From: a virus
Reading direction: 5' to 3' (one strand)
IMG/VR virus record: IMGVR_UViG_3300043112_000063
Location: 38,046-102,045 of that record
DNA length: 64,000 nucleotides
Made by a program: the position numbers and the translations under genes. Of the stretch, positions 590 through 62,791 are shown piece after piece. The stretch's first letter is position 1; every line of letters starts with the position of its first letter. Under the pieces are notes generated by a model, which saw only the letters and a program-made list of their open reading frames with translations, did no database searches and was not told where the DNA came from.

Positions 590-665
590 GTAGGTAGAAG
601 GCGTATATCTACGGATATACAAGTGTTGTCACACACTTAACCACTGACGAGTGGTAGTGACATTT

Positions 666-13432: not shown

Positions 13433-14194
13433 ATGGATAGATTACCAGTAGCAGAAACATTTGGACCTACAATCCAAGGAGAAGGAAATTACGCAGGCAA
13501 AAAAGTTTTATTTATTAGATTTGCAGGCTGTGATTTTAGGTGTAGCTGGTGTGATAGTAAATACACACACGTTATTACCAATGAAACAGAGTGGTTAAGT
13601 ACTGAGGCTTTAATAAATAGAGTTAGAGCACTTAATGGAGAAGGCGTTTTTGGAAAAGGAAGAAAATGCGACCACATTATTTTAACTGGTGGAAACCCTG
13701 CTTTGTATAACTTAGATAAGTTTATTGATGGACTTCATAAAATGAATATGTTTGTTCATATAGAAACACAAGGTACTAAGTTTCCAGAGTGGCTACATAA
13801 GGTAGATAATGTTGTATTTTCACCAAAGGCTCCAAGTAGTAAGATGGAAGTTGACCAACAAGATGTTGCAGAAAAGATTAATGATTTTGCTAAGAATAGA
13901 GAATTAGACGAAAACAAACACGTTATTGTTAAGATTCCTATTTTTGACGACATTGATTACGATTGGGCAAAAGAATTTCATAGGTATTTAGATATGAGAT
14001 TAATCGACCATTATTTCTTATCTGTAGGTAATAGTAATTTCAAACCAACAGATACAAAAGACGTCATTGTTAGTGGACTTTTAGATAGTTACGATTGGCT
14101 TGTTCAAAAAGTACAAAACGATAGTTACTATAAAGATGTTTCCGTGCTACCACAAATTCACACGTTGCTATGGGGCAACAAGATAGGAGTATAA
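13433..14194 (+). CDS. queE: 7-carboxy-7-deazaguanine synthase (radical SAM)
   Basis: TIQGEG, FIRFAGCDFRCSWCDS, LTGGNP, IETQG, LPQIH. Confidence 0.95.
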   Translation: MDRLPVAETFGPTIQGEGNYAGKKVLFIRFAGCDFRCSWCDSKYTHVITNETEWLSTEALINRVRALNGEGVFGKGRKCDHIILTGGNPALYNLDKFIDGLHKMNMFVHIETQGTKFPEWLHKVDNVVFSPKAPSSKMEVDQQDVAEKINDFAKNRELDENKHVIVKIPIFDDIDYDWAKEFHRYLDMRLIDHYFLSVGNSNFKPTDTKDVIVSGLLDSYDWLVQKVQNDSYYKDVSVLPQIHTLLWGNKIGV

Positions 14195-14204
14195 AAAGAT
14201 AAAT

Positions 14205-14888
14205 ATGGATGATGTGAAAAGAAGAATTAAGTTGGAACCAAAACAAAAAGAAAAACTTTTAGTTGCTGGAAAAGGAAGAATTTTAGAGCAGGAACTAGAG
14301 GAAATCGAAACGGATATTTTACCGTCTATTTATAGACTTATGGAAATGTGTGGTGGAGACCCTTCCGGAAACGGACAAAAGGATACACCATATAGAGTTG
14401 CAAAAGCCTGGATGGAAATGTCTGAGGGTTACACAGAAGACCCAAGAGAACATCTCAACACTTCGTTTGATTTAGATGACGGAGATAAGGAAATTGAGAA
14501 AGACGAGGACGATTTAGTAATTGTAGAAAACATTACTATTAAAAGTGTATGTGAACATCATATCTTACCGTTCATTGGAACAGTAGATATTGGTTACATA
14601 CCAAAAACAAAGGTATTAGGACTTAGTAAGTTTGCACGTTTAGTTAGAGGGTATGCAAGTAGATTCCAAATACAAGAGAAACTTGGTGCTCAGATTGCTA
14701 AGGCGATTATGGAAGAAGCAGACGCTAAGGGCGTAATTGTAAAAATAAACGCAGTTCATACTTGTATGATAGCACGTGGTGTTAGAGAAAAAAATTCTAA
14801 TACAGTTACCGTTGCTGTTAGAGGTGTGTTTAAAGAAGATAAGATGTTAGAACAAAAATTCTTAACTGCAACAGGAGGAAACAGATGA
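14205..14888 (+). CDS. folE: GTP cyclohydrolase I
   Basis: TPYRVAKAW, CEHHILPF, GLSKFAR, QIQE, HTCMIARG. Confidence 0.95.
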   Translation: MDDVKRRIKLEPKQKEKLLVAGKGRILEQELEEIETDILPSIYRLMEMCGGDPSGNGQKDTPYRVAKAWMEMSEGYTEDPREHLNTSFDLDDGDKEIEKDEDDLVIVENITIKSVCEHHILPFIGTVDIGYIPKTKVLGLSKFARLVRGYASRFQIQEKLGAQIAKAIMEEADAKGVIVKINAVHTCMIARGVREKNSNTVTVAVRGVFKEDKMLEQKFLTATGGNR

Positions 14889-15337
14889 TTTTTGGAAAAA
14901 GTTATGTAACAAAAGAATTTACATTTGATGCTATGCATCAGTTACCCAACCACGACGGATTATGTAAAAACCACCACGGACACACTTACAAACTACAAGT
15001 TACCGTTACGGGTCTTATAGATACAAATGAAGGCAAGGCTTCTGAAGGTATGATTTATGATTTTGGACATTTAAAGAAACTTGTTAAAGAGTTAGTTTTA
15101 AATAAGATGGACCACGCATTTTTGGCTAAAGGCGATGAGGAAATACTTCCTGAAATAAAAAGACTTGGAACACGTGTTTGTGTAATGGGAGTTAGAACAA
15201 CAGCTGAAAATATGTCAAAGTATATTTTTGAATTATTATCACCACAATTACCGAAAAATGTTTACTTAAAAAATGTTAGATTGTATGAAACACCAACTAG
15301 CTGGGCTGACTATACTTTAAGTGACCCAACTAAATAA
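14885..15337 (+). CDS. queD: 6-carboxytetrahydropterin synthase
   Basis: FDAMH, CKNHHGHTY, DFG, DH, TAEN, ETPTS. Confidence 0.95.
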   Translation: MIFGKSYVTKEFTFDAMHQLPNHDGLCKNHHGHTYKLQVTVTGLIDTNEGKASEGMIYDFGHLKKLVKELVLNKMDHAFLAKGDEEILPEIKRLGTRVCVMGVRTTAENMSKYIFELLSPQLPKNVYLKNVRLYETPTSWADYTLSDPTK

Positions 15338-18853: not shown

Positions 18854-19130
18854 TAAAGTAATTAAAAAGATTAAAAGTTTACATAAATTAGTTACTCCTA
18901 CTTTTAGAGAATACGAAACAGAACTTAAAACCTTTATTAGTCGGTATGGATATGATGCGGACACATTTAAAATAATGGATACTATGTGGCACATAATTGT
19001 TTATGAAAAAGAAACACGGACATTATGTGCCGTCATTAAAGTTGGCTTTAGAGGTAAGGAACATTGTACGACGTATAATGTTAAATTGTATATGAAGGAG
19101 AAGACTATTGAAAAAGATTTTATTGTATAG
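18834..19130 (+). CDS. Hypothetical protein between polA and queC
   Basis: Overlaps both neighbours in operon. Confidence 0.65.
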   Translation: MLMNKHNKVIKKIKSLHKLVTPTFREYETELKTFISRYGYDADTFKIMDTMWHIIVYEKETRTLCAVIKVGFRGKEHCTTYNVKLYMKEKTIEKDFIV

Positions 19131-19842
19131 TGGCGGACTCGATTCTTGGCTAATTAATAAAATATGGAAACCAGATATTAAGATATATGTTGATATTAAT
19201 GGTGCATATAGTAAAGAAGAGATTTCAAAGCTGCCAGAAGATGTAATTGTAGAAAAATTAGATTTAGGAAAATGGGAGCTACCTAATAAAATAATCCCAA
19301 TGAGAAACTTATATTTCTTAATGGTAGCAAGCAATTACGCTAAAGACGACAAGTACGAACAGTACGAAATATGTCTAGGGGCAACAGCTGGAGACCGTGT
19401 ACTTGATAAAAGCGTTGAATTTGCAGATAAAGTAACTGATTTATTCAACTATTTATACCAAGAACAATGGTGGACTAAACAAAAACACTTTAGAATAAAT
19501 CTCGATTTTAAAGATTACACAAAAGGAGATTTATTAGAACAATACTTAACTATGAACGGTACTTTAGAAGAGGCTTGGGAAAGTAGTTTTAGTTGTTATA
19601 ATCCACAAGAAGACGGTACAGAATGCTGGTCTTGTAAACCTTGTTTCCGTAAGTTTGTTACATTTTATATGGAAGGTATGACATTCGATAAGGAAAAAGA
19701 AGTTCGTATTTTAAACTACTTAGAAAAAAATATCATTCCAAAAATAAAAAGTGGTTCTTATGGACGTGGAAAAAAAGAAGAAGGAGATATTGTGACTGTT
19801 TACGAACACTTACGTTCTAAGTATCACAATATAAAAGCGTAA
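19108..19842 (+). CDS. queC: 7-cyano-7-deazaguanine synthase
   Basis: YSGGLDS PP-loop, IPMRN, SCY...CWSCKPC zinc site. Confidence 0.9.
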   Translation: MKKILLYSGGLDSWLINKIWKPDIKIYVDINGAYSKEEISKLPEDVIVEKLDLGKWELPNKIIPMRNLYFLMVASNYAKDDKYEQYEICLGATAGDRVLDKSVEFADKVTDLFNYLYQEQWWTKQKHFRINLDFKDYTKGDLLEQYLTMNGTLEEAWESSFSCYNPQEDGTECWSCKPCFRKFVTFYMEGMTFDKEKEVRILNYLEKNIIPKIKSGSYGRGKKEEGDIVTVYEHLRSKYHNIKA

Positions 19843-20744
19843 TGGGAAAGTTTAATACCTACTATGCCGGGATACAGTGTCCTGAGGCCGACGAGTATAT
19901 AAACGAGCACGGCTTATTAAGGTTATTAAGTTATTGGAATGATAAAAAAATGTTTGAAAAAAGATGCAAAGAAGGTCTAAAAACATTTTTAGATAGTGGT
20001 GCGTTTACAGCGTGGACTAAGAACACAGAAGTTGATATTGATGAGTATATTGAATATGTTAATAAGTGGGACGATGGAATAGACCATTTTATTCAGGTCG
20101 ATGAAATTCCAGGAAAAAAAGGATACACACCAACACCAAAAGAAAGACTAGCGTCTAACCAAGTTACTTGGAATAATTATCTTTATATGAGAGAACGTGT
20201 AAAAAGTCCTGACAAATTAGTTCCTGTTTTTCACGCTGGTTCAGATATTAATATACTAAGAAGATTACTTGAGTTCGAACCAAAAATAGACATGATTGCT
20301 ATTGGTAACATTGTTGGAAAAACAAAAGCGGAAAAAGAAGCTAAGTTAGAAGTTATATTTAATGAAATAACTAGAAGTAGTAACCCAGATGTTAAGATAC
20401 ACGCATTGGGAGTTCAAGATTTTAAATTAAGTGAAAAGTTTCCTCTTTATAGTGCCGATGCAAGTAGTTGGATAATGGTTAGCGCAAACGGTGGAATAAT
20501 GAGTGAGTTTGGACCTATATTAGTAAGTGAGAAAAGTACGGAAAAGAAAAACCACTATGAAAACCAATCACCGCCAGTCAAAGAAAAAATAGATGAGTTC
20601 ATTTCTAAATATGGTTACACATACGAAGAGTTAAGTAAGGACTATAAGAAAAGAACCTTATTTAATATTAAGTGGTTGGACGAAAGAAGTAAAAACTATG
20701 TTTGCAAGTATCACTTACGTAAAAAGAAAAACACACTATTTTAG
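19842..20744 (+). CDS. dpdA: DpdA-like DNA 7-deazaguanine transglycosylase (TGT fold)
   Basis: LDSGAF, DEIPG, PVFH, KIHALG, SADASSW; clustered with que genes and polymerase. Confidence 0.85.
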   Translation: MGKFNTYYAGIQCPEADEYINEHGLLRLLSYWNDKKMFEKRCKEGLKTFLDSGAFTAWTKNTEVDIDEYIEYVNKWDDGIDHFIQVDEIPGKKGYTPTPKERLASNQVTWNNYLYMRERVKSPDKLVPVFHAGSDINILRRLLEFEPKIDMIAIGNIVGKTKAEKEAKLEVIFNEITRSSNPDVKIHALGVQDFKLSEKFPLYSADASSWIMVSANGGIMSEFGPILVSEKSTEKKNHYENQSPPVKEKIDEFISKYGYTYEELSKDYKKRTLFNIKWLDERSKNYVCKYHLRKKKNTLF

Positions 20745-28097: not shown

Positions 28098-29012
28098 ATG
28101 AAGAAATACCGAAAAATTATTGCTTACCCAAAACCTAAGGCAAAAGAAGCATTAGATAGTTTTAAGTCTGTTGTTATTTCTGAAAAAATTGATGGAGCAA
28201 ATGCAAGTTTTAAACTATCTGAAGATGGTAAATCAATTGAATGCTTTAGTAGAAATAATCAACTAAATGAAGATAATGACTTACGAGGTTTTTACGATTG
28301 GGTAATGGATAATGTAAAAACAGACAACTTGTTTCCACACGTTATCTACTTTGGCGAGTGGCTAGTTAAACATAAAGTAGGTTACAAAAAAGAAGCCTAC
28401 AATAAGTTTTATTTATATGATTTGTATTCTGAATTAGAGGGCGAATATCAATCTTGTTACAACGAGGTTGGAACTTATTTTATTCAGACAACTAAAGACG
28501 CATTCTTTGCTCCCGTAAGGTATGCTGGATTACTTCCAGAAAATGCCGTTGAGTTTATTCAATCTTATATGGAAAAAAGTACCTTGTCGGATGGTAAACC
28601 AGAGGGCGTGGTTGTTAAGGACTATGCTTATGTCAATAGATTTGGAGAACAGACAGCAATTAAGTTTGTTAACAAAGAGTTTAAAGAAAACCAAACACCC
28701 AAAAAAAGAAGAACACCACCAAAATTAAGTGAAAGAGAAAAAATGTTATACGAATTAGTCGAAGACCGCATTAATGAAATAAGCGTTCAAAAATTCGTTG
28801 ATAAAATGATTGATGAAAGTATTATAGATAAACGTTGGAAAGATGAAGATTTAAGTACTTTGTTAAGTAAGTTGTCTAATTTGTTTAGAGTGGACGTTAT
28901 TGAAGAAGTATTCGATGATAAAGACTTAGATAAAGACGACTTAAAGTTTATTAATAAAAAAATAAGTTATTTATTTGTTACAGAGTTAAAACAAATCTAT
29001 TTTAAAGGTTAA
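28098..29012 (+). CDS. RNA ligase (Rnl2-like)
   Basis: EKIDGAN, SRN, FGEW, YD, EGVVVK, KFV. Confidence 0.85.
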   Translation: MKKYRKIIAYPKPKAKEALDSFKSVVISEKIDGANASFKLSEDGKSIECFSRNNQLNEDNDLRGFYDWVMDNVKTDNLFPHVIYFGEWLVKHKVGYKKEAYNKFYLYDLYSELEGEYQSCYNEVGTYFIQTTKDAFFAPVRYAGLLPENAVEFIQSYMEKSTLSDGKPEGVVVKDYAYVNRFGEQTAIKFVNKEFKENQTPKKRRTPPKLSEREKMLYELVEDRINEISVQKFVDKMIDESIIDKRWKDEDLSTLLSKLSNLFRVDVIEEVFDDKDLDKDDLKFINKKISYLFVTELKQIYFKG

Positions 29013-29192
29013 AATTGGGGCTGTAGCGCCCCTTTTTAATTATATACAATAGTTATACAGTAAAAACAAGAGAAAACGTTTGTGGGCGGGATTTTAAATG
29101 TGATAAAAACAAAAAACACCCTTTACACAGATGTATAAATATGGTATAATAACTATGTAAAAATAAGTATATTATAAGAGAGGAGAATTACA

Positions 29193-29771
29193 TTGAAAAG
29201 AGTAGAAACAACATTCACATTTAGGGAGTATAATTATCTTTACCTATTCGGTATTGATGGAGAAAAACTTCAACCGTACAAAACATTTTCTGGAATTATA
29301 GAATCACACGAACATTTGTCAGAAGAGGACGAAGCAGATTTGTATATGTTATCTTTAGGGGAACGTATTAAACAAAAGAATCCACACTATGACCCAGAGG
29401 AAGAATCTGACGTAGAATATTTCAAAGTTAGTTACTTACCTAAAACAATTAAAAACGAAGATGGGGAAGAGGAAGAAATTCATTACGTAATTGAAAAGAA
29501 TGTAAATTACGATAAGTTTGAAGACACAGACCACACTAACAAAACACCAGTTGAAAGTGCTAAACAGGCTATGGGCTTTATTCACAATACAGCAAGTAAA
29601 TACACTAAACATAATAAAGAAGTGAGAAAAACGTCAGAGCAAGATGACCCTACATTAAGATACTGGCTAACGTTAACTTTAGACGAGGAAGAGTTAGAAA
29701 AGATGAAAGAAGACGGTAGTGATATGAGTACAAGTTTACAAGCCGTTGACTTCAAGTTTTTCTATAAATAA
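29193..29771 (+). CDS. Acidic hypothetical protein
   Basis: Promoter at 29122 and SD GAGGAG upstream. Confidence 0.75.
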   Translation: MKRVETTFTFREYNYLYLFGIDGEKLQPYKTFSGIIESHEHLSEEDEADLYMLSLGERIKQKNPHYDPEEESDVEYFKVSYLPKTIKNEDGEEEEIHYVIEKNVNYDKFEDTDHTNKTPVESAKQAMGFIHNTASKYTKHNKEVRKTSEQDDPTLRYWLTLTLDEEELEKMKEDGSDMSTSLQAVDFKFFYK

Positions 29772-29772
29772 T

Positions 29773-30939
29773 ATGAAAACAAATGAGCAAGCTTTTGTAG
29801 AGTTATTTAATAAATCCCCACAAAGAGTAATTAACAAACTGGACAAATACGTAGCGGACGGATATATCAAATCAAACGTAAATTCTTTTTTCCCAGAATT
29901 AACGATATACAACTATTCTGAAAAAACAACATTTGAAAGAAAATGGAATACATATACTTTGGCTTGTAGGGGCTTAGTTATTGATAAAAAAGAGTTAAGA
30001 ATAGTTGCTATGCCCTTCTCAAAATTCTTTAATTTAGACGAACTTAAAAATACAGATTATGAACACTTGAGTTGTGTAGAACCAACACAAACATATGAAA
30101 CGTATATTAAGATGGACGGCAGTCTAGGTATTGGCTTTGTACATAAGAACACATTTATATGGTGTACAAGAGGTAGTTTCGATAGTGAACAGGCGAGATT
30201 TGCTAATTTTTATATGCGAGAAAACTTTACTGAAGAAGCGTTAGAGAATTTGGCTTTTGACTATGAAGGGATGACAATACTCGCTGAAATTATTTATCCA
30301 AATAATAGAATTGTTGTTGATTATGGAGAAACAAAAGGCTTAATAATTTTAGGTATGATTAGAAATAGTAATGGTATTGAAATGAATTACCGAGATTTAT
30401 GCTTAGAAGGTTTTATGTGTAACCTTCCAGTAGTTGATAAGTATGAAGGAAATACTAACATTAAAGAGTTATTGAAATCTGCTAAAGAGTGGGACAAAAA
30501 TATGGAGGGTGTTGTTATTAAGTACGCAAACGGAAAACGTCTGAAATTAAAAGGAGCAGAGTATTTACGAGTTCATAAACTAAGATATGGTTTTAGTATG
30601 AAACAACAAGTAGAATTATGGAAGGACCAAATACACGAAAACTATTTAGCGGAAATAGACGAAGAGTTTAGAGATGAATTAGATGTCTTATATAAAACAC
30701 TAGACGTGGTTTTTAATTCTTACGTGTTAGAAGTTATGCGTATGGTTAACGATGTTGAGGTTTTAAAATTAGATAGGTCAGACATATATAAACACTTTGA
30801 ATCTAAAGGTAAAAATAAAACACTTATTGCGTGTGTTTTCTCAGTGTTAGATAATAAAGGCTATAAACAAAAAATACGTGAGTATATGTATAAAGAATAC
30901 CGAAGTATATTGAACGTTAAGGAGTTGGAAGATGAATAA
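29773..30939 (+). CDS. T4 Rnl1-like RNA ligase
   Basis: CRGLV, PFSKFFN, KMDGSLG, TRGSF, EGVV, KLKGAEY. Confidence 0.9.
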   Translation: MKTNEQAFVELFNKSPQRVINKLDKYVADGYIKSNVNSFFPELTIYNYSEKTTFERKWNTYTLACRGLVIDKKELRIVAMPFSKFFNLDELKNTDYEHLSCVEPTQTYETYIKMDGSLGIGFVHKNTFIWCTRGSFDSEQARFANFYMRENFTEEALENLAFDYEGMTILAEIIYPNNRIVVDYGETKGLIILGMIRNSNGIEMNYRDLCLEGFMCNLPVVDKYEGNTNIKELLKSAKEWDKNMEGVVIKYANGKRLKLKGAEYLRVHKLRYGFSMKQQVELWKDQIHENYLAEIDEEFRDELDVLYKTLDVVFNSYVLEVMRMVNDVEVLKLDRSDIYKHFESKGKNKTLIACVFSVLDNKGYKQKIREYMYKEYRSILNVKELEDE

Positions 30940-31897
30940 ATTAATTATGATGATTGGCTTTCCTGGCGCTGGAAAAAGTCATAGAGCAAAGGAATTAAAA
31001 AGAATTGGTTACGTGGTTCACAGTAGTGATGCAATCAGAAAAGAGAAACTTGGTAACGAAAATGACCAGTCGGCTAATAATTATGTATTCAATCTTATGC
31101 GGAGTAGAACAATAGATGACCTTAAAGATGGTAAAAATGTTGTTTACGACGCAACAAACCTTAACCGAAAAATAAGAAAACATACACTTAATACCTTTAA
31201 AAAATATGTCAACAACATAAAAGCATTAGTTGTTCTTAGACCTATCGATGATATATGGAAATACAATTTAGAAAGAGGTTTTCCGGAAGACAAGTTGAAG
31301 GCTTACTTACGAAGTTTTAACCCTCCTTCAAAAGAAGAGGGCTTTACGGAAATAGAATATCATATTAGTGGAAATTCAACGTATAATTGGGACAATAGTT
31401 TAACTACAATAACCGACTTCTTTGTTGAAGCAGTTACCACAGGATATATTAGAATGGAAAATCATCCTTGGTACAAAACAATTAAAGACTACGACCAAGA
31501 TAATAGTTATCATACAAAAACATTAGACCAACATATTTATGAAGTGTCTATTAGAGCCCGTGAATTTCACGATAACGAGGTTTTATTAGCTGCCTTATTA
31601 CACGATATTGGAAAACCATATACTAAGGTTAAAAATAAACACGGTACATCTAGTTATTATGGACACGAACACGTTAGTTCTTATATGTCAGCAATACTGT
31701 TTAGTTTTCTAAACATTAGAGACGAGTTTACGAAATTAAACATAGACACAAATAAAGTACTCAACTTAATTGATTTTCATATGAGAATGCCAAATACAAA
31801 AACACCAAAAGCAAAAAATAAATTAATAAATGAAATAGGAAGAGATATGTACCCACACTTGTGTGAGCTTTTTGTGTGCGATATCTCAGGGAAGTAG
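30932..31897 (+). CDS. Polynucleotide kinase (P-loop) fused to HD domain
   Basis: GFPGAGKS, SSDAIR, YDATN; YDQDNSYH...H, ALLHDIGK, HEHVS, HM. Confidence 0.88.
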   Translation: MNKLIMMIGFPGAGKSHRAKELKRIGYVVHSSDAIRKEKLGNENDQSANNYVFNLMRSRTIDDLKDGKNVVYDATNLNRKIRKHTLNTFKKYVNNIKALVVLRPIDDIWKYNLERGFPEDKLKAYLRSFNPPSKEEGFTEIEYHISGNSTYNWDNSLTTITDFFVEAVTTGYIRMENHPWYKTIKDYDQDNSYHTKTLDQHIYEVSIRAREFHDNEVLLAALLHDIGKPYTKVKNKHGTSSYYGHEHVSSYMSAILFSFLNIRDEFTKLNIDTNKVLNLIDFHMRMPNTKTPKAKNKLINEIGRDMYPHLCELFVCDISGK

Positions 31898-34204: not shown

Positions 34205-34466
34205 TCACTTGGATAGAAATGGTTTTCAACTACATAAAATGAAAACTCATTTACAAGCAAATAGACAAGACCACGAAGACATATACCTAGTTAATAGTAT
34301 GCTTATTTATCCTGTACTTAATTGGACAAAGAGTGGAAATACCATTTTTAGATATGATATATTTTTTGCTTGCGGCGGAACTATAACCAAAGTAAAGAAT
34401 TTAACCGAGAGCAAACTGTTTAATTATGTTTGTGAATTGGTAGGACGTGAGAAAAATGAATCTTAA
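34188..34466 (+). CDS. Hypothetical protein
   Basis: SD GGAGG. Confidence 0.65.
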   Translation: MLETYNHLDRNGFQLHKMKTHLQANRQDHEDIYLVNSMLIYPVLNWTKSGNTIFRYDIFFACGGTITKVKNLTESKLFNYVCELVGREKNES

Positions 34467-35292
34467 ATTGTACATAAGTAGTGTTGACTATTTTAAAGAA
34501 ACACATCCAAATGCAATAAGGGTTTTAGACATAAATAACTTTATTAGTATATGTCGAAATGTGCCACTATTCACAACAGTTTCTAATACTAAAACGTATT
34601 ACTATACTAATAGTGATATTAAAAAAGAACAGTTAGAAACACTTGTTAAATCAAAACTACCTATTTATATAATAGACGAAAAAATAGATAAAAGAAGTGC
34701 TCTATATAAATACTGTAAAAAGAATAAACTTATTGTTGAACAACCACCAACAAACAGCGCTATTCTTAAAAGAATGTATCCTATGTTATCAAGTAGAAGT
34801 ATTGGAACTATTTTAAAACATAGTACTGATTATACAAAACTCGCTACTACCAATAAACTACTCAATAGTTTTAATAAGCTTACCGATAATAAAGTAGCAT
34901 GGATTTTTTCTGCAGACTATGAAGATAAAATATTTGAAACACTTGACTATTTAATGGTAGGTAATTCAGATAAGTTTTATAAGTTATATTCAGACCTTAT
35001 TAACTTAGGAGAAAGTAAGTTTAAGTTTATGGTGTTGTTGTATAACAAACTTAAAACATTAATACTTATAAAGCCCCATACAGGCGCCAGTATTAAAGAA
35101 ATACAAAACCACACAGGACTTAACTACTACCAAGTAAAGAACAACGTTATGTTAGCGAAAAGGTATAGTATGAATACTTTTGTTAAGTGGTTTTTAGAGT
35201 GCGGAAGGATTGAAAGAGACATTAAGTATGGTAAGGCTGATGTAGACATTGATTTAGAAATACTTATTTTAAACATATTGAAAGGACAATAA
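34456..35292 (+). CDS. holA: Clamp loader delta-like subunit
   Basis: KIDKRSALYK, IFETLD, GLNYYQVK, ERDIKYG...LEILIL C-terminal pattern. Confidence 0.7.
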   Translation: MNLKLYISSVDYFKETHPNAIRVLDINNFISICRNVPLFTTVSNTKTYYYTNSDIKKEQLETLVKSKLPIYIIDEKIDKRSALYKYCKKNKLIVEQPPTNSAILKRMYPMLSSRSIGTILKHSTDYTKLATTNKLLNSFNKLTDNKVAWIFSADYEDKIFETLDYLMVGNSDKFYKLYSDLINLGESKFKFMVLLYNKLKTLILIKPHTGASIKEIQNHTGLNYYQVKNNVMLAKRYSMNTFVKWFLECGRIERDIKYGKADVDIDLEILILNILKGQ

Positions 35293-52090: not shown

Positions 52091-53736
52091 TTATTCAACT
52101 GTAATATAATCATTAAAATGGTTTGTCATATGTCCGTTTATATAACCTAATTGTGAACTTGTTAGTTCTTCTTCTTTAGCAATCTCACTAAGTCTTTCAT
52201 CAACTTTATCTTGTAACGCATTCATCTCTTTACCTGTCAAGGTAATAGGATTAGCACAAGTTCTTCTTTCGAAAGCGTCACATTCTTTATAAGCAACGCC
52301 TTTTAACTTAATGACTGTGTTCTTTACAATACCTTGCATTTTAACGTCAGGATAAGTTAATCTTAGGTCCACTGAAGGTCTACGTCTCCAAAATCCGCCT
52401 TCACGTTTTACAACGTTAGCACGTTCTTCGGACATTTCTTTTGTTGCAACTTCAGATAATGTTCCCATTTAGTTTTCCTCCTTCGTTTAAATATAGTATT
52501 ACTTAACTACTAATATTATACTTGATAATTGTTGAAATGTAAATACTTTTGTATGAATATTTTTATTTGTTCTTTAAAAGTAAATGAAAAAAGCGTAGTA
52601 ATGATAACGACGACCACCAAACTTCATTCCAGAATACCAGTCCATATTAAGTGTTTCCATTATGTCTTCTTTAAGTTCGGGAATACCTTCTGCAATATTG
52701 GTTGCCCATTTTTCCATAGCTTCTATAGCTATAGCATCATAATCTGGTTGTTCACCTCGAGTAAATAAAGGAACCATCAACTTGATATATAAAGTAATAG
52801 AATTATTTTCTAAACTGTAATCTAATTTAAGTTGTTCTGGAACATTTGGAATACTACTTTTTACTATTCTTAAATAGTTGTTTTCTTCCGATTCAAAATA
52901 CCTAGAATCATTAAGTCCTAATTCTTCATTAAGATACATCTGTGCCATATGTTCATCTTCGAATAAGACTATATGTCCTTCTTCGTCTAGCAATGCTTGT
53001 TCGCCAACTACAATATAACACTCGTTCTTATTACTTACTAATGTATCATAAACAATAGAAACATATGGAATTATTACTTCATCTTTAATTTCTTTTTTAC
53101 TCACCTCGATAAACCTCCTTTGGAACTTTGTCTATTCCTAATAATTGTTGAATTCTTTTTATGTAATCTTCTTTTGATAACTGATAAAAATGTGGTTTCA
53201 TAATATACTGTGCATAATTAGATTCTTTTGTACTAACAATTTCATTTCTCATACTTTCATAGCAAACTGGACAAGCCGTATGACCCGTATGGTTAATCAT
53301 CTTACCATAGTATTCTACTCGTCCACAGTTACGACAAATAACCTTGTCTTTCATCTCGTCTGTTTCGTGTCTTGATACAAAAACTTGTGGTCTTTTATTC
53401 GCCATCTTCTTCCTCCAAGACAGCCGTTGTTTCTTTTGGCGGTAATTTAGAATTAAAATGTCTAATTGCTTGGTCTAAATAGAGTTTAGCATTATTCAAT
53501 TTCTCCAACGCATATCCCGAATTGATTTCTTTATGTCTAGCCAATACTTCGATAACTATTCCACAACCCTCAATTGCGTAAACTAATTCTTTTGTGAATG
53601 TTGCGTCCCTGTTTTCTGGATTTTCAATTTCCATTTTTTTAACGGTGTGAAAATGATTTGCCAACTTATTTACGTACGCACGAAATTCCATAGCGTCCTT
53701 CTCGGCATAAAATAATCTTTCTTCTTTACTAATCAT
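52091..53736 (-). other. Four hypothetical genes (52091-52468, 52574-53104, 53097-53405 with two CxxC pairs, 53395-53736)
   Basis: ORFs with SD sites, co-oriented. Confidence 0.7.
52515..52543 (-). promoter_or_regulatory. Early-type promoter with conserved spacer
   Basis: TT(G/T)(T/A)(A/C)A-TTTCnnnnnTTATCAnn-TATAAT; also 56258-56286, 56848-56876, 58363-58391, 60335-60363, 61709-61737. Confidence 0.8.
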
Positions 53737-53760: not shown

Positions 53761-53854
53761 TGGTGGTCAGGGATGGACTCGAACCATCGACGCACGGGTT
53801 TTCAAGCCGTCGCTCTTCCTCAAACGAACGGTGTCGCTTCTGAGCTACCTGACC
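53761..53854 (-). tRNA. tRNA-Phe(GAA) with ~18-nt hairpin insertion in the D-loop
   Basis: GGTCAGG/CCTGACC-ACCA; D-stem GCTC/GAGC with 26-nt loop; ACGGC-TT GAA AA-CCCGT; T-arm GATGG-TTCGAGT-CCATC. Confidence 0.85.
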
Positions 53855-53860
53855 ATAATT

Positions 53861-54090
53861 GCTACACGATTTTTTGTTAGGTCAGGTGTAGCCGTTGACC
53901 CCGCCGATTTAGTTTATACTCCTACGCGCTTGCAAGAGTTAATTATTTCCCCATCCAAATAATAGAGTTCACTACGTTCTATTTACTATTAAGGAGATAA
54001 TTAGTATGAGAGTAGGAAACTTCCCCCGGATTTGAAAACTACTCTAATTTATCTGACCACAACGGGCACCCATTTTTGAGTGGTGGCAGA
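53861..54090 (-). ncRNA. Putative structured RNA/leader upstream of tRNA-Phe
   Basis: Several stems and a 3' H-type pseudoknot, no ORF. Confidence 0.55.
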
Positions 54091-54104: not shown

Positions 54105-57100
54105 TTATTCTTTATACTCGTCTAATACTTCTTTGATAAAAGTTGCGTTAGCAGTGTATTTTCTTTCTCCATCAAGTGAAGTTAGATTAAATCTAGTTCT
54201 ACGTACACTATCAAAGACATACCTATTACCGTCATTTCCAACAAAGATTTGACCTTTAGTCATAGAGTGCATTGTTTGTTTACGTTCTAGTTCTTCTTGT
54301 TTTTCTTTTTCTACTAAGTCAATAACATCTTGGTGTACGTTATCAGTAGATAATTCCTGCACCTTATCTAAAGTAAGTGTGGTCTTAAAACGTCTTGGCG
54401 ACATATCTTTTAATCTATATGCCAAAACTGAACCGCCACTTGTTATTCCTGTATAAGCATACTTCTTACCGTTTACTACAAATTCTTGTCCGATTTTTAC
54501 CATTACTCTCTCCTTTCTAAATCTTCATAATTTAATTCGACTACAACTGTATTGAACAAACAATATACTTCTAAATAATCTGCACGTACATTCGGTTCAA
54601 TTATATCTCCCATTTTTTCTAATACGTGTGTCATAAAGTCATTAAAATCAAATAATACTATCTTCTCTCTGTTCTTACGTTCCATTTTAATAAACGTTCC
54701 TCTAAAGGTTACAAGTATCTTGTCTTGACAAACAATAATTGTATAGTCTTCTTTAAGATATTTTTTTGCTTTTTCGTTTAGGTAACTAATGATACAACTA
54801 TCAAGTAAATCTTTATAGTTATAGAAATCTCTAGTCGTTATATTTTCATAAGCCATTTCTAAATCATCAATAGCCCGCATAATAACTTGCTCAAAAGTCG
54901 TGGTACTTGATAGCGCAATTACACATTGTTTGACAAATTCTTCTCTACTCAAACTTTGCGCATCTATTCCAAAAGATGTTTGAGCGTTATCAGAAATCTC
55001 GTACCAATTATAATCATACTCTAATTCTAATACTGCTTTTATCAGTAGTTCTTTTGGTGTTGGTATATCAGTCTTAATACTCATCTTTAAACCACCTATC
55101 ATATTTAGATGCTGATATATGTCCCGCCATTGCGTATAAGAAATCTTGTATCTCTTCGCATATAGTATCTTCATCATTATTATTCAAGTACTCATCGTTA
55201 GTTTCTTTTGTGCCTCCGATTAAGATATGAATAATACCTCTATTACGCAAGTGTTCGTAAGGGTCAATTACTGTCGCATTCAGGAACTTAGAAAATTGTT
55301 CTTTACCTTCTTCCGTAAACATATCAAAGCCACTACTCATACACTCAGTACTTGCAGGCATATACTCAAAGCCATCTACATAAATGTCAACACAACTATC
55401 GTTTCTAATTAAGAATTCGTGAAGTGTCATTGGACTTAACCTATCTTTTATTTCCATTCTTTGTGCTAGCGTTACTTCCTTATTATGAACTAACGAAACT
55501 ACAAATTCAACTATCTCGTCTTCCTTTAATTCTTTTAGAACAATATTCTGTAGAAACTTTAATTTCTTTTTTCTCATACTGTTTCTCCTTTCGTTTCGTC
55601 TTTATAAATTGGTTCTCCATCACTACATACTTCTGCACCAGCTTCAAGCGCCATTAAGATACTGACATAACGGCTTTGTTCACTGCCCTCACACATAAGT
55701 ACTGCTTCACGAAACTTCGCTATCTCTTTGTCTCGTTGTCCAAATGTTCTTTTACCGCCACATTCAATAATTACTTGACCCATCTTTGTACCTCCTATCG
55801 TGATAACATATCATAAACTTCTTGTGTTTCATATCTTAGTCTTCCACCGTCCCACATTGGTCCGATATAACCTTTAATGATTGGTTGGTTGTCTAATTCT
55901 TTTCTATGACATAAACCACCGTTCTCTCTCACTTCGGTTAAGTCATCGGTTAAGCCTGTCGCCTCAGCATAAAGGTCAACAACACTAACAACTTTTCTAT
56001 TGTATCTTCCACCAAAGAAAATTGCTTTTAATTCGGTAGGTGCGTCATAAACTGCGATAACTTCTATTTCTTTTTTATCAAGTTTATTTTTAGCTTCAAT
56101 GGCTTCTGAATAAGTATATCTTGGTGCGTCAGATAAATTAAAACTTCCTACTCCGTCTGCATTTATATACTCATCATAAGCATTAGTTACTTTCAATACA
56201 CAATTCTTATTGTTACTTACTTTCATTTCTTTACCCCCTTGTTATTTAACTACTTATATTATAAGTGATAAACGTTGAAATTACAAGTACTTTACAAGAA
56301 AAGTTATTTATTTTTTCTTTGCTTATTTTTTACCCTATAATATAAGGTTAACTATTGGTGAATATGTACGAAATACCCACCAAATAGCGCCACAGTTTAC
56401 GTTCATTGTTATTATGGTGTTACATACTACCATATAACGTGAAAACGTTTACAACGAGAATTAAGTAGTAATATTCTACGTGTTAATCACATTATTGATA
56501 GTTAAGTAGTAATATTCTACTACTTAATCTTTTAGATTATACCAATATCTTCTGAACAATTTACTGATTGTTGTTTTTTCTCCGTTAACAAATACTCTTG
56601 TGAACGGTATTGAAATAGTTGTACCATCTTTTTTCTTGACACGTAAGAAACCTTGTTCCACGTTAATATTAAGTTGTTGCATCTCTTCGTTTTTTTCGGT
56701 GTCGAGAACTTTAATAGCATCACTGTTTCCTTTTTTCCATTCGTGTAAATCTTCCATAGTTTCAAAGTACTCATACCCACTGTTGATAATACTGCAATTT
56801 TTTACAAAGACCATAATTTAATTTTCCTCCCTTAACTGTATATACCTATTATAATTGATAAACATTGAAATTACAAGGGTATATATAAAATAATCTTTAT
56901 GAACACAAAATAATCACATTTGAGTAAATTGTTAACACAAAAAACCTCCAATCAAGTCAGAAAGGAGGTTTTGAAATTAAATTGTATCAGTCTCTGATAC
57001 TATATGAATTATTATTAAGAATAACTTTTTAAGTCTACTCATCAATCCCACCAAGCACGCATATATTTCTGAGTTCTTTGCGGCCAATTACCCTCAGTAA

Positions 57101-57527
57101 ACTTTTCATATCCATTATCCCACGACCAAGCACTTGTTCTTGTATTTACTGAAAACTCTTGTGCTTGATATTTGTTTTTAAATATACGAACAAATTCTTC
57201 TATATCATTTGGTGTTTGCTTACTACCAACAGGATGATAAACTCTAATCCCCCCAAGACTAATACCAACATCCGCATCTAAGTTTCTTCTTCGCGGAGAG
57301 AATACAATAACCTCAAGTCTAATGTATGGTCTAAGGTGCTTATTCTTTTTACAGTAAGACAGTATTTTTTTCGTTGGTGTTTCGTTGTGATACAGTTCGT
57401 CCCAACCATTTTCAATTAGTTTATCTAACTCATCGGGAGTTATCTGAACTCGGTATGTACCACCCATCCAAGTGATGTTTCTCAACTTTAATATTTCTTC
57501 GGGTGTTGATATTCTATTGGTACGCAT
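54105..57527 (-). other. Run of small hypothetical early genes (54105-54503, 54503-55084, 55074-55577, 55574-55783, 55795-56226, 56524-56814, 57042-57527)
   Basis: Co-oriented ORFs with strong SD sites behind repeated promoters. Confidence 0.7.
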
Positions 57528-57765
57528 TTTTCCTCCTTCTTAACCTTTCCGCCACAATAAATGCACGGAGATTTACTTTTTGTATCTGCTGAGTATTGGT
57601 CTTTACCACACTCTTCACAAATATATTTTACCATCAATACTCACTCAAGTAAGTAAAGAAAGCACTGTTTCTCATTTTTAATTGTTCTTTAGTTAATTCA
57701 CGTTCTACCTCTAACGAAGCAACTAGTGGTGTCTTACATTTAGGACATCTTAACATTTTTTCCTC

Positions 57766-58320
57766 CTATTGTTCTCTCATATAATAATGTTTATCTTTAT
57801 AATCAAATTCGTTATGGTCTACACTATAATCACTTTTTACACTGTCCCAATCAATATACTTTTCTACTAATTCCCAATTATCTTTATCAGTAAAATTACA
57901 AGATAAACATTCCTCACAGAATTGAGTAAACGCATCTTCGTCCATAATTAAATAATTACTGAGGTCTTCGTTTTCCAATGCTTCAAGTGCTGTTCTTTCG
58001 CTTTCTGTTTCATATAAACCAATAAACTCAAGTTTTTGGTCGTCAGTTAAGTTAATCCATTTTTGATAAAACTTAACAACCTCAAGTGGATAACATTCGC
58101 CAAACATTTTATACAGTCTACCACCAAATTCTTCATCGTCGTAATCGTGAATAACTAATTCTTCGTCTATGGTGTCTGGAAATAAACCAACCTCTTCCAT
58201 TCTTTGTTTAAAGTTATCTTCGTCTATAACGTCTAAGTCAATCCAGCCACCTCGACCAGCTCCTTCGTTATATGAAGCCCAACTTGTAACGTAAATCTGA
58301 TTGTTATAAAATTCTCCCAT
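57766..58320 (-). CDS. ardA: ArdA-like antirestriction DNA mimic
   Basis: IYVTSWASYNEG..GGWIDL, IHDYD, YIDWD; very acidic. Confidence 0.85.
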   Translation of the reverse strand: MGEFYNNQIYVTSWASYNEGAGRGGWIDLDVIDEDNFKQRMEEVGLFPDTIDEELVIHDYDDEEFGGRLYKMFGECYPLEVVKFYQKWINLTDDQKLEFIGLYETESERTALEALENEDLSNYLIMDEDAFTQFCEECLSCNFTDKDNWELVEKYIDWDSVKSDYSVDHNEFDYKDKHYYMREQ

Positions 58321-58409
58321 TCTTGTTCCTCCTTCTAATACCTTATTTATTGTTACATAAATATTATAAGTGATAATACAAGAAATTACAATACTTTTTT
58401 ACGAATATT

Positions 58410-59819
58410 TTATTTTTTCGTACGTTTTAGTACTGTTTCACTACCATCTGCGTATTTAAGGATAATAATGTCGCTCTTAAACTCAGATAACTCTTCGACA
58501 CTACATAATGGTTCGTTGTAATCTCCTACAACTCGATACAAGTCACTAAAATGTTGTACTTCTTGTTCGTTTGGGTCTGTTTGGTTAATATCAGTATATA
58601 GGAAATCTGTTTCTTCGTCGATATAGACTATTTGACCAAAGTTATCGAATCCTAAACATTTTAAGACTATTTCTTTATTCCACTTAGCCCTCTCTTTCCT
58701 GACAACTTCTTCCCACTTGTTGCTTCCGTACCATTCGTTAATCATATTTCTTGTTACGTGAATAGCCCAAACACCAAACCCATAAACAATCCATTCTTCT
58801 AATGTTGGTTCTTTATACGTTCCATTCTCTTTAATAAGCATTCTTTTCATCGATGTACTGCCTCTGAGTAAATGCATAAGTTGCTTCCAGTCATCTCTTC
58901 TATCTACAATTTGAGACAAGATAGAACATAATGTCCCCGCACTAGGCTCTCCATCATAAACACCATAGTGTTCTTCGTAGTATTCTTTTACTTTACCATC
59001 TTTGTACGCAAATATCCAAAGTAGTTCTTCGTCTCTTAATTTTTCCATACCATTCCTCCTAATAAGATTGATACTAAATTCTTTAATATTATATTTTCTT
59101 TTTCTAAACGATTAATTTTATCGTTATCACTTTCAAATAATCCGGTGGCATCTAATATTGATTCCATAGAGTTATAAGCAAGAACTTTTTTTGATACGTG
59201 CTTTACTTCTCTTTCTATGTACATTCGACTATGTCTTCCTACTCTAGGTCTACCAACGTCAATAGTAATACGAACATAATGTTCTCCTTTGTTTATTGAA
59301 AGACCTGATAAATCACATACGTAATCTTTTCTTGCTTGAACCAATTTTTGTTGATAATATTTCTTGTTATAATGTGGCATATTAAACTCCCTTCTCAAAA
59401 GAATAATTTTCATCGTAGTATTCTTTTGCACTTACTTCACTTTGTTGTTTTTCGACACTCTCTAACCTTTTGTCGTGATTACCATCTACTGATATAACTT
59501 CTTCTACTTCTTTGTCCCAATTATCTAATACTACATCGAAACCACACTTCTGAAGCTTTTTAGTGCTTGTTACAAATTGCTGACCATAAAAAGTATGAGT
59601 ACTTAAATAGTAATCTTCATATTTATGTTTGTTTCTTGCTTTAGCGCATTTATATTTTTCTCGATGCTTCGCTTTTAGCCAACCACTATATTCACCAATT
59701 TCAAGTATATGTGTATCAGATTCATTTGGTACATCACGTAACTCTTTCCAGTTTTTGATAAACTTAGCAGTAGGGTATTTCTTTTTAAGTTGTTCTACTG
59801 TTCTAATGACTTTACTCAT
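58410..59819 (-). other. Three hypothetical genes (58410-59048, 59036-59380, 59382-59819)
   Basis: Co-oriented ORFs with SD sites. Confidence 0.7.
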
Positions 59820-59823
59820 AATA

Positions 59824-60051
59824 CTACTCGTTATCTTTTAGTAGTTGAATTAACTCTGCTTTTTTAAGTTTTGAAAAACCAACTAATTTACGTTCTCTAG
59901 CAAGGTCTTTAAGTTCTTTTACTAACATATCATCGTAGTTGTATTTTTCTTTTACATACGGCTCAGTCGGATTTTTAACAACCCAATTTTTTGGTCTTGG
60001 TGCTTGTGTTTGTTCATACTTTCCTGTTTCTTTGTTATAAGTACCTTTCAT
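59824..60051 (-). CDS. Rho N-terminal (HeH) domain protein
   Basis: MLVKELKDLARERKLVGFSKLKKAELIQLL. Confidence 0.8.
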   Translation of the reverse strand: MKGTYNKETGKYEQTQAPRPKNWVVKNPTEPYVKEKYNYDDMLVKELKDLARERKLVGFSKLKKAELIQLLKDNE

Positions 60052-60618
60052 CTTTCTTCCATCTCCTCTTTAAATATAATTATAAATTCATATAAACATA
60101 ATGATAATATAATAACCCACGCGATAAACATAAGAATTATTTTTCTTCTAACATATCAATAATATCATAGCCATCACGGAAGCATCCTTTTTGTTCTTTA
60201 ACTAATTTACCGTCTTTGAACACACGGACCCAACCGTAATCGTCGGCATCAATAGTGTATCCTTTATAATCTCCTATTTCGTGTCCCATCTTGTTCTCCC
60301 CTTTCCTGTAACCTTATTATATAACTACACACACAGTATAATTGATAAACGTTGAAATTACAATACTTTTATACGAAAACTTTTATTTAATCTTTTCAAC
60401 TGCGCTAAAAGTGAGGTACGACTTTGCGCAATTACACTCAAATGCGTCAAAAGTGAATTACCACTTCGCGCAATTACACCATTTGTCTGAGTGGCGTTTA
60501 GATAGAAACTTGTATTGTATTTAGTCAATCTTAAAAAGAAACTATCGGTAAACATATCACTCTTTAGATTTACTTTTGAAATTGCAAAGAAAAACAAGGT
60601 CAATTACGACCCTGTTTA

Positions 60619-62791
60619 TTATTCCCATATTGATAATGTTTTAATATTCTGAAGTGCTTTGATGTCAGTACCTTCAAACTTATCCATAAACCATTCATCT
60701 AATGTTTCTATTGATGGTTTTTTTGAATCTTGAAAACAACTTTCTTTGTAAGCAATAAATTCTCTTCTTAATTCACTAACGATAGTTTCTATTTGGTCTT
60801 CCTTTTCTTTTTCTATAATTAGGAATACATCAAATTCGTTATTGTCTTCTTCAGTAATAAGTCTGATAATAGTTTTATCTTTTGGTGGAACTTCATCTTT
60901 AGTAACTGATAACAATCCCCAACCTTGTTTGATACCATTTGATATATTTCGGTTTAGCATATCGTCATCGTCGCACCAAAAGTGTGAATCTACCATATGT
61001 TCCCATCTAATCTCGACCCAGAAACCACTGTCTTTTTGATTAACAAGTATGTTTTCTAGCTCGTCAGTGCCATCGCCTCTACACATTGTCAGTCCCCCTA
61101 CAATTCATAATTTAAGTCAACACGTATTTCCCTGTCAGCATAATTCTCTAAGTCATCGTCCCAAACATCTAATCTAATAATCTTTGTTGGTGTATAACTG
61201 ATAACTTTTAGTTTTGGTACATCATTTAGATTTAATTGGTCTTGAATGTTTTCTACTAGGTATTCCGCACGCTTTCTATCTCCGCGAACGTAAACAATAA
61301 TAAGGTCAGTACCACTAACAGATTTAAAATCAATAATACCATATTCCTTATTTGATTTCCAGTTAGTTAATAAGGTATATATGACACCCATTCCTTTGTG
61401 TCTCGATTGTTTCCAAACATCTTCTGCATCTAAAGTTATTTCAGTTCCTTGTTTGTTCTTAAATTCAGTGTCTTCACTAATGTCGATATTCTCTATTCTC
61501 ATTTTCTTTCTCCTCCTATTCAAATTGTTTTTCTGCTTCTTGTACGGTCATCCCGTAACAGTCTTCAAATTCTTCTTCCGTGTAACTCCCGTCATATACA
61601 TTAAGTAAATCAGCGTACATTCTTTGTTCATCTTTGTCCATACCAAGGAACGCCTGACGGGCTTGATATTCTTCAACGTCGTACATATTATACCTCCTAA
61701 CTATACCCATTATAATTGATAACACGTGAAATTACAATACTTATACGTGAAATTGTTGTTGAAAAACTTTATTTTCTAGTTCCATAAGAAGTGAAGTACC
61801 ACTTCGCGCAATTGCGCTGAAAGTGAAGTAGTACTTCTGACGTTTTTACAGTAAATCACCCATCACAAAATCTAATAAATCATCTGCCAGTTGTTCACTA
61901 CAATCACACTTGGTAATCAGCTGACAATCCGTGTTGAAAACAACGGTATCGGTTTCATTTAAAATGAAGATAACGTTGTCGTCTTTGCGTATTGTCTGAA
62001 CTGATTGTACATCGTATCCGTAATCTTGTAAGAATACTAATACTTGCTTACTAGATAATTTTCTCATACTGACCTCCTTATAATTCTTCTCCATCGAAAT
62101 CGTGTAGATTTCCGCATTTAGGACAACGTTTGAATTGTTCCATATAGACTTCTAATTCTTCACCACAATTTTTGCAAATATCTTTATCTTGTTCCATTAG
62201 GATAACCTCCTTTCACTTACCTAACCTTGACGGCGCGGCGGAATGATTATTGAATAATATTTTTTAACAAACTATTGATTAAATCAACTTGTAAATTATG
62301 AGTAATATGTCTACTGTCAATATACGTAAATGAATTAAGGTCAATTACACAAGATACTTTTGCGAATTCTGTGAATGTAAACGTTAATTCATTGTCTTCG
62401 TTACAAGTAAATTCTACATCAGTGAAGTTATAACCCCAATCTGATAATTGTCTTACAACACCATTTTCGTTGAACTTTACCATATGTTTACCCCTTTCTA
62501 TTTATAATCATTTACTAATACTTGATAAACGTTACCATCTTGACAAGTAATTTCTAGTTCAGTTTGTTTGATACCGTTTACAGTTACTGCTTTTTGATTA
62601 AGAACTCGATAACTAACAAGTGCACCACTACATTGATTTTTTTGAATAAGACCGTTGTACATAGTTTCAGCCTCGTTCGTTGCTACATATTTAGTGTATT
62701 TAGTGAATGCTACCCTTGCTGTTGAATAACCTGCCTGTCTTAGTTGTTCAAACATTTGTTGACAAGACACTTTTTTTGTTAATGAACCCAT
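60619..62791 (-). other. Run of small hypothetical early genes (60619-61086, 61098-61502, 61516-61686, 61846-62067, 62078-62197 zinc ribbon, 62247-62483, 62498-62791)
   Basis: Co-oriented ORFs with SD sites. Confidence 0.7.

Follow-up and report, generated by a model that had tools for sequence, protein, structure and literature searches.

In the MALAT1 and MEN-beta RNAs, a triple helix is combined with the transfer RNA (tRNA)-like mascRNA, which is cut by ribonuclease P (RNase P), and the new 3' end is stabilised (PMC8457004). For bacterial RNase P, anti-determinants have been described, i.e., pairing of a leader with the 3' RCCA inhibits or slows the enzyme (PMC9433436). Among small pseudoknots, preQ1-I aptamers consist of a P1 helix of 5 base pairs (bp), a loop L1 of 2 nucleotides (nt), a P2 helix of 4 bp, and an A-rich L3 (PMC10639078), and CPK-1 knots, by definition, have an L1 of 1-2 nt and a second stem of 6-7 bp, the two stems abutting without an intervening base (PMC11262651). 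Here we analyse a leader-tRNA element in a 64,000-nt stretch of phage DNA (the window, bases 38046-102045 of the 102,045-bp IMG/VR virus record IMGVR_UViG_3300043112_000063, which has a G+C content of 33%). On the minus strand of the window, a 250-nt leader (54104-53855) that ends in an H-type pseudoknot precedes a 94-nt tRNA-Phe(GAA)-like gene with encoded CCA (53761-53854), and one strand of the knot is complementary to the 5' end of the tRNA as well. The whole analysis rests on one sequence; unless stated otherwise, coordinates are those of the window, and features of leader and tRNA are on its minus strand.

The H-type pseudoknot which a first-pass annotation had placed directly before the tRNA is confirmed as a sequence pairing and ends 6 nt before G+1. 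Its first stem (S1) belongs to a hairpin (53879-53901) consisting of GGGUCA (53901-53896), an 11-nt loop, and UGACCU (53884-53879), which form 6 bp. The second stem (S2; 53861-53892) comprises seven Watson-Crick pairs between GCUACAC (53892-53886), located within the S1 loop, and GUGUAGC (53867-53861). Loop L1 is the 3-nt ACG, a single C lies at the S1-S2 junction, and the 11-nt L3 (AACAAAAAAUC, 53868-53878) must span the S1 minor groove. With A at 8 of 11 positions (0.73), L3 is among the most A-rich of the genome-wide knot candidates. A linker AAUUAU (53855-53860), single-stranded and with U at -1, leads to the RNase P site predicted by the cloverleaf. Judged from sequence, both the nesting of the stems and the lengths of the groove-spanning loops are sterically allowed for an H-type knot. 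When candidates are scored simply by pairing, an equally good knot that ends within 12 nt of the end of the piece occurs in only 0.4% of random 70-nt pieces of this genome, and among the 26 tRNA upstream regions the knot is the best, the other 25 not coming close. A combinatorial scan of both genome strands finds about 25 loci that fit the same stem and loop criteria, most of the others being AT-rich; as one of them lies inside the transfer-messenger RNA (tmRNA) gene, the scan recovers real knots.

What sets this knot apart is the second partner of its core strand. The segment GGCUAC-AC-CUGACC (53880-53893), whose bases also make up the 3' strand of S1 and the 5' strand of S2, can pair with nt 1-12 of the tRNA (GGUCAGGUAGCU), giving an anti-5' helix of 12 bp with a 2-nt bulge. 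A repeat finder returns the core of this helix as a perfect 8-nt inverted repeat (53847-53854 / 53880-53887) with arms 25 nt apart. The complementarity, noticed already in the first-pass annotation, is real and unusual on three controls. When the 60 nt upstream are scored against the first 15 nt of the tRNA, the duplex reaches -18.6 kcal/mol with a z of -4.0, which is equalled by 0 of 500 shuffles, whereas the corresponding duplexes of the 25 other tRNAs of the genome lie between -2.8 and -11.5 kcal/mol, all with z of at least -1.6. About three non-trivial loci among 6,800 natural 60-nt windows (204 kb) offer as good a duplex, i.e., about 1 in 1000. For 672 tRNAs of other IMG/VR phages, z is distributed as N(0,1), and the sole value of -4 or below belongs to a mis-called tRNA start.

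The first 11 nt of the tRNA consist of the S1 5' strand (GGUCA), a G, and the S2 3' strand (GUAGC), and since this 11-mer thus copies both partners, one strand can displace both of them from the knot. This layout is as expected of mutually exclusive helices, and the two alternative pairings are real and statistically exceptional. The likeness of knot and tRNA extends to both S1 strands, which copy strands of the tRNA acceptor stem (GGUCA, CCUGACC), and shows up as a direct repeat of GGTCAGG at 53765 and 53880. A further segment, independent of the anti-5' segment, is directed against the other side of the acceptor stem: the 3' strand of the leader hairpin HP1 (54063-54053) is complementary at 10 of 11 positions to the 3' acceptor strand and ACCA end of the tRNA. 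In addition, GUUUUCAA (54032-54039), in the loop of the AGAGUAG/CUACUCU hairpin, matches the anticodon loop UUGAAAAC (53798-53805) as a perfect complement over 8 nt. As this 8-mer is AU-rich, its significance is modest; a loop-loop contact is possible. Altogether, three perfect 8-mers complementary to the tRNA are observed versus about 0.3 expected (p about 0.01-0.02). Among the 672 tRNAs of other phages, a tRNA-Ser-like gene of an unrelated IMG/VR phage (L028:2577-2610) is immediately preceded by a 10-nt leader segment, AGCGCUUUCC, that pairs with the first 10 nt of that gene across a 5-nt loop (z -3.4). This plain hairpin would bury the RNase P site and may be a second leader that sequesters a tRNA 5' end.

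The explanation that we favour, if only tentatively, is that the two mutually exclusive folds gate RNase P cleavage of the tRNA from an early polycistronic RNA and that the knot then caps the 3' end. In state A, the leader would form the H-type knot, with the A-rich L3 in the S1 groove and the 6-nt linker single-stranded, the five-armed tRNA-Phe would fold as a cloverleaf, and RNase P would cut at G+1, after AAUUAU. In state B, the core strand (53893-53880) would pair with tRNA nt 1-12, the segment 54063-54053 would take up the 3' acceptor strand, and the RNase P cleavage site would be buried in a helix. As the tRNA lies between two open reading frames (ORFs) of an early operon and has neither a promoter nor a terminator of its own, the balance between states A and B would determine how quickly tRNA release and severing of the polycistronic RNA proceed. 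Once RNase P has cut, the upstream RNA would carry the knot 6 nt from its new 3' end, where the knot would block 3' exonucleases. Transcription of the minus strand, RNase P cleavage, population of both states, a regulatory input, and the capping role are all elements that we infer, and the same holds for the conformational switch controlling tRNA maturation which had been proposed initially. tRNA genes in phage operons are usually taken to be passive passengers that are cut out by RNase P by default; if the proposal is true, a leader able to take up both acceptor strands, and masked by a pseudoknot, would let this phage tune the timing of tRNA release and of the cut in its early polycistronic RNA. 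Given the fifth arm of the tRNA and the heavy investment of the phage in tRNA supply and repair, the module may belong to the contest with host defences that cut tRNAs.

Energy calculations are consistent with two competing folds. When the full precursor is folded in a nested (knot-free) manner, both acceptor strands pair with the leader, in the minimum free energy (MFE) structure as well as in the ensemble, where the anti-5' helix has pair probabilities of 0.6-0.99 and the anti-3' helix of 0.92-0.93. With the knot bases blocked, the ensemble of hairpins plus cloverleaf amounts to -85.9 kcal/mol plus the knot term, versus -98.9 kcal/mol for the trapped fold. Break-even therefore requires about -13 kcal/mol from the knot, and the stacks of S1 and S2 contribute -24.4 kcal/mol before penalty, the penalty for a knot being about 10-12 kcal/mol (Dirks-Pierce parameters). 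In this model, the two global folds appear to be nearly balanced, lying within nearest-neighbour error of each other. In the growing chain, the order of MFE structures is the S1 hairpin, the S2 hairpin, and, once tRNA nt 1-12 emerge, the anti-5' helix.

Several points weigh against a switch. Seven of the 25 ordinary tRNAs of the phage also lose their acceptor stem when the same calculation is carried out with 250 nt of upstream context. Thermodynamic bistability is therefore weak evidence, the duplex statistics carry the weight, and the ensemble probability of the acceptor stem, being non-discriminating in this control, was dropped as a test. The knot has no terminal toehold and, once formed, may persist, in which case there would be no switch. 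Also, the tertiary structure of a real tRNA favours state A, and no sensor or input is recognised. Finally, no homologue was found, so that neither pairing has support from covariation or conservation.

A rather doubtful, simpler explanation is that the element is a constitutive end-cap, in which the tRNA-like gene serves as RNase P signal, the knot does nothing but protect the upstream 3' end, and the complementarity is functionless. The position of the knot, 6 nt from the predicted cut, would suit such a cap, as would an A-rich L3 of the sort usual in very stable knots, the presence of HP1 and HP3 as further stable hairpins in the same stretch resembling a 3' untranslated region, and the lack of a terminator nearby. 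MALAT1, where a triple helix stabilises the new 3' end left after RNase P has cut off a tRNA-like RNA (PMC8457004), provides an analogy. However, an end-cap offers no explanation for the strongest statistical signal, the 12-bp match with the 5' end of the tRNA (z of -4), and it does not account for the second, anti-acceptor segment either; moreover, a comparable knot is missing at the other tRNAs of the phage.

The likeness between leader and tRNA could also be evolutionary debris, the leader containing decayed copies of tRNA-Phe and the pairings being functionless by-products. Copies of acceptor strands are present at 54058, 53900, and 53886, one of CCACCACU at 54086, and ACGGCU at 53895, so that CCACCACU, GGUCAG, ACGGCU, and CCUGACC all match the tRNA directly. 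Within the S1 hairpin such words even follow in tRNA order (5' acceptor strand, anticodon-stem strand, 3' acceptor strand), and a 14-nt direct repeat spans the tRNA 3' end and the trailer. However, neither direct nor inverted local alignments between leader and tRNA score better than chance, whether the trailer is included or not (p 0.50, 0.48, 0.38), the direct matches of at least 6 nt number four, which is about the chance expectation, and ARAGORN at relaxed settings yields only poor pseudo-hits in the leader. Decayed copies would not account for S2, nor for the GCUAC by which the complementarity is extended. We consider this origin unlikely.

In contrast to the last 50 nt or so before the tRNA, to which the statistical signal is confined, most of the leader is unremarkable. 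The seven stem pairs listed by the first-pass annotation are all present on the minus strand at the positions given there: GCCAC (54087) with GUGGU (54060), CACUCA (54082) with UGGGUG (54072), AGAGUAG (54045) with CUACUCU (54015), UAAUUAU (54003) with AUAAUUA (53946), ACUCUUGC (53939) with GUAGGAGU (53925), GGGUCA (53901) with UGACCU (53884), which is S1, and GCUACAC (53892) with GUGUAGC (53867), which is S2 and matches over all 7 nt (100%). The idea that they build one structured unit of 230 nt is not borne out, as the 250-nt leader reaches a z of only -1.61 versus shuffles. The mid-leader (53940-54052), with the AGAGUAG/CUACUCU and UAAUUAU/AUAAUUA stems, folds no better than shuffled sequence, and leader nt 56-165 (53940-54049) show a z of -0.8, with -0.4 and -1.2 for sub-segments. 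Only three local hairpins beat chance (p about 0.01-0.02). These are HP1 (54053-54089; z -2.5, p 0.02), with an outer stem CUGCCAC / GUGG-U-CAG and an inner stem CACUCA / UGGGUG, HP3 (53918-53939; ACUCUUGC-AAGCGC-GUAGGAGU; z -2.9, p 0.009), and the S2 hairpin (z -3.1, p 0.011), whereas the S1 hairpin alone has a z of -1.7. The 5' two-thirds of the leader are thus not demonstrably part of the device. Sequences of the leader recur elsewhere in the genome only as 13-14-mers at chance level.

A parallel had been drawn to positions 603-750, and it fails, since the leader of the tRNA-Glu located there lacks complementarity to its own tRNA (z -0.37) and contains a weaker pseudoknot. That pseudoknot (600-665, plus strand) combines AAGUGU/ACACUU and GUCAC/GUGAC with a CCACU/AGUGG hairpin in L3, and its pairing score lies near the 5-8% background. 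It ends 4 nt before the 85-nt tRNA-Glu (666-750), which has a 13-nt variable region.

The tRNA-Phe gene itself seems to be intact. Its cloverleaf, as read from the sequence, has a 7-bp acceptor stem (GGUCAGG/CCUGACC), a 4-bp D stem (GCUC/GAGC), an anticodon arm ACGGC-UUGAAAA-CCCGU with anticodon GAA and U33, a variable loop GCGUC, a T arm GAUGG-UUCGAGU-CCAUC with a UUCGA T-loop, and the discriminator A73 followed by the encoded CCA. All stems and loops are canonical except for an insert in the D-loop and a C:C at 31:39, and the bases for tertiary contacts are all kept (U8-A14, G15-C48, G18G19 with U55C56, A21, C13-G22-G46, A9-A23-U12). The phage encodes a canonical tRNA-Phe(GAA) as well (genome positions 34395-34470, outside the window), and the two paralogues are identical in the D arm (insert aside), at base 26, and in the variable loop. 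Comparison with this canonical copy shows that a 19-nt stretch (53821-53839) replaces a single U at position 16; it folds, also in the computed structure, as a hairpin AAGCGA-CACCGU-UCGUUU followed by G, which constitutes the fifth arm. Position 16 of tRNAs is a solvent-exposed site of the D-loop and variable in length. Since the bases for tertiary contacts are intact and the insert is placed at such a position, the five-armed tRNA-Phe is probably functional, or at least folds correctly, and is not a pseudogene. Because its D-loop has 26 nt, the gene is missed by ARAGORN in default mode and remains below the gathering score (29 bits) of Rfam RF00005, to which it gives a partial match of 21.6 bits (model positions 10-63).

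A pattern scan of other IMG/VR phages detects four further tRNAs with a D-loop hairpin (L006:409, L032:1267, L045:9768, and L112:1455), i.e., Arg-CCG, Arg-UCU, Glu-UUC, and Asn-GUU, which have D-loops of 23-31 nt and perfect acceptor, anticodon, and T stems. Five-armed tRNAs therefore recur in phages at low frequency and are rare, not unique. None of these four has a leader complementary to its own 5' end. A reading of the gene as a split or intron-containing tRNA was rejected, as it is followed by the ribosome-binding site of the next ORF and not by a tRNA half. As a clue to the host, acceptor and D arm are uninformative, since the 5' 15-mer and the 3' 8-mer occur together in matches of 73-74 nt, the size of ordinary tRNAs, from many phyla.

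The leader-tRNA element lies amid tightly packed small ORFs that match no known family. An ORF of 132 amino acids (aa) on the minus strand (54105-54503) ends with its stop 15 nt before HP1, and downstream, the AAGGAG ribosome-binding site of a 113-aa ORF (53395-53736, minus strand) starts about 10 nt past the CCA end of the tRNA; neither product belongs to a known family. Between the two ORFs, the minus strand (54104-53737) contains no ORF of at least 30 aa and no promoter-like or terminator-like site, and the region is most simply read, on the basis of consensus scans, as an internal stretch of an early polycistronic transcript. The closest promoter-like site upstream on the minus strand is at 56286-56258, the next terminator-like site downstream at 52092-52070, and from 56286 to 52092 the consensus scan finds no sigma-70-type promoter or intrinsic terminator on that strand. 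A promoter or terminator belonging to the tRNA-Phe itself was thus rejected. The upstream site is a member of a series in which TTGTAA-17-TATAAT recurs on the minus strand at 61737, 58391, 56876, and 56286 and a variant occurs at 60363 (56258-61737). The members of this series are probably early promoters serving the gene block at the rightward end.

At the DNA level, the same inverted repeats might constitute a protein operator or a recombination site around the tRNA start, given perfect arms of 8 bp with 25 bp between them and of 7 bp with 18 bp between them. However, the interleaving of the arms suits an RNA pseudoknot and not a palindromic operator, the arms are widely spaced and occur nowhere else in the genome, and a promoter-like site is missing at this place. 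Of all the explanations weighed here, we give this one the least credence.

Elsewhere in its genome, the phage is well equipped with functions related to tRNAs. ARAGORN finds 25 tRNA genes and a tmRNA, all clustered on the plus strand, and an RNA-repair cassette (28098-31897, plus strand) encodes an Rnl2-like RNA ligase (28098-29012; PF09414, 67.9 bits), an Rnl1-like RNA ligase (29746-30939; PF09511, 84.8 bits), and a fusion of a kinase (AAA_33) with an HD phosphohydrolase (30932-31897); RtcB was not found. Cassette, tRNAs, and tmRNA together suggest that the host attacks tRNAs. Such an attack is the setting for another, improbable explanation, according to which RNase P cleavage frees the leader as an early non-coding RNA of about 250 nt, whose targets in trans would be tRNA-Phe or fragments of it, contacted through the complements of anticodon loop and acceptor strands. 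This RNA could lure away or soak up a host anticodon nuclease, or could serve as a splint for the repair enzymes of the phage. The excess of perfect 8-nt complements, one of which is exposed in a hairpin loop and targets the anticodon loop, and the repair functions agree with this explanation. However, the acceptor strands of a folded tRNA are inaccessible in trans, a contact of 8 bp is weak, and the mid-leader lacks significant structure.

Close relatives of the locus did not emerge from any search. The family-A DNA polymerase of the phage shares at most 36% identity with the enzymes of Clostridium, Bacillus, and Streptococcus phages. No relatives were detected by blastn versus phages, by tblastn of the flanking ORFs versus phages, by a search of IMG/VR with flanking proteins and tRNA patterns, or by a pattern scan of metagenomes. 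The only IMG/VR match (L004) was rejected as a chance match in coding DNA. In a search of 5.8 billion proteins, both flanking ORFs retrieved only themselves, identical neighbour proteins being encoded on four contigs. A HMMER search with a 224-aa neighbour versus 1.8 billion representatives gave one match, P0004, of 112 aa and 41% identity.

Comparison with Rfam, likewise, provides no support for a known regulatory RNA. The first-pass annotation had suggested a cmscan check and probing with preQ0, preQ1, or S-adenosylmethionine (SAM); searches at gathering thresholds and at E ≤ 10, with 1001 nt and with 81 nt, return nothing but a partial tRNA, and T-box, preQ1-I/II/III, SAM-II/V, fluoride, self-cleaving ribozymes, Y RNA, GOLLD, and ROOL were rejected as none of them is matched. 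Of the ligand-binding RNAs, preQ1-I (RF00522; B. subtilis queC type) is the one to which the element bears some likeness, as both are small H-type knots with a P1 of 5-6 bp, in which GCUACACC lies in the loop right next to the 3' strand of P1 and an A-rich tail follows P1. One might thus propose a 7-deazaguanine (preQ0/preQ1) aptamer related to preQ1-I, which would tie tRNA release or operon integrity to preQ0 synthesis by the phage, an idea that we regard as very improbable. Aligned without gaps, the phage element and the aptamer of B. subtilis share GCUACACC at the same loop position beside the P1 3' strand, as well as an A-rich tail (aptamer sequences from PMC10639078), and a 4-bp P2-like pairing ACGG/UCGU is possible at the corresponding place. 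The phage also encodes a radical-SAM protein (QueE-like), GTP cyclohydrolase I (FolE), PTPS (QueD), and QueC, all Pfam-confirmed and located at 13433-15337 and 19108-19842 on the plus strand; the adjoining 300-aa ORF (19842-20744, plus strand) has no Pfam match at E ≤ 0.001.

However, no PreQ1 family of Rfam is matched even at E ≤ 10 on 81 nt, and the P2-like pairing contributes -1.5 kcal/mol versus -9.2 kcal/mol for the competing 7-bp S2, which uses bases that form L2 in the aptamer. When read as preQ1-I, the phage element has a P1 of 6 bp, an L1 of 0 nt, and AACAAAAAA as L3; as the alignment leaves no L1, the uridine that contacts the ligand is missing. Instead of a queuosine or transport gene, as in the known aptamers, the element precedes a tRNA-Phe gene, the que genes being about 34-40 kb away and on the opposite strand. 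Both versions of the knot mask the same anti-tRNA bases, so that dependence on a ligand would have no clear logic. The wider proposal of a riboregulator, in which the module of knot and anti-acceptor segments makes RNase P processing conditional on a signal, perhaps the 7-deazaguanine precursors made by the phage, in view of the GCUACACC loop and A-rich tail in common with preQ1-I, seems to us equally far-fetched; if true, this would be the first case in which tRNA maturation, and the severing of mRNA by tRNA punctuation, is under riboswitch-type control.

Returning to the favoured two-state reading, its closest counterparts are found among systems of other kinds. With MALAT1 and MEN-beta, the phage element shares a compact, A-rich tertiary structure that immediately precedes an RNase P substrate of tRNA shape within a longer transcript and, as predicted for the phage, an influence on processing of pairing between the leader and the tRNA-like flank. 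In contrast, MALAT1 is eukaryotic and nuclear and employs a U-A-U triple helix using the very 3' end, whereas the phage has a classical pseudoknot with a 6-nt tail and a tRNA that resembles a working one, its cleavage and stabilisation being predictions. Similar to the anti-determinants of RNase P, a 5' leader would extend or replace the acceptor stem by pairing and so hinder formation of the catalytic complex. However, the known cases concern 1-2 nt beside the cleavage site, whereas in the phage a segment 26-39 nt upstream provides a 12-bp helix, which would remove the whole 5' acceptor strand together with a D-stem strand and which competes with a knot. The knot itself resembles CPK-1 knots, for example the operator knot of T-even gene 32, in its 7-bp S2, possible stacking of S1 on S2, and short L1; because L1 has 3 nt and one C lies between the stems, it falls outside the strict definition of that class.

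With attenuators and T-boxes, the element has in common that one strand can choose between two partners sharing a sequence, here GUAGC at -12 and +7 and GGUCA at -46 and +1. The T-box family (RF00230) itself has no Rfam match at the locus, no Stem I is present, and a specifier-like word UUCA lies in a simple hairpin loop instead of an internal loop of Stem I. Unlike in attenuators and T-boxes, the output in the phage would be access of RNase P and not termination of transcription or binding of ribosomes.

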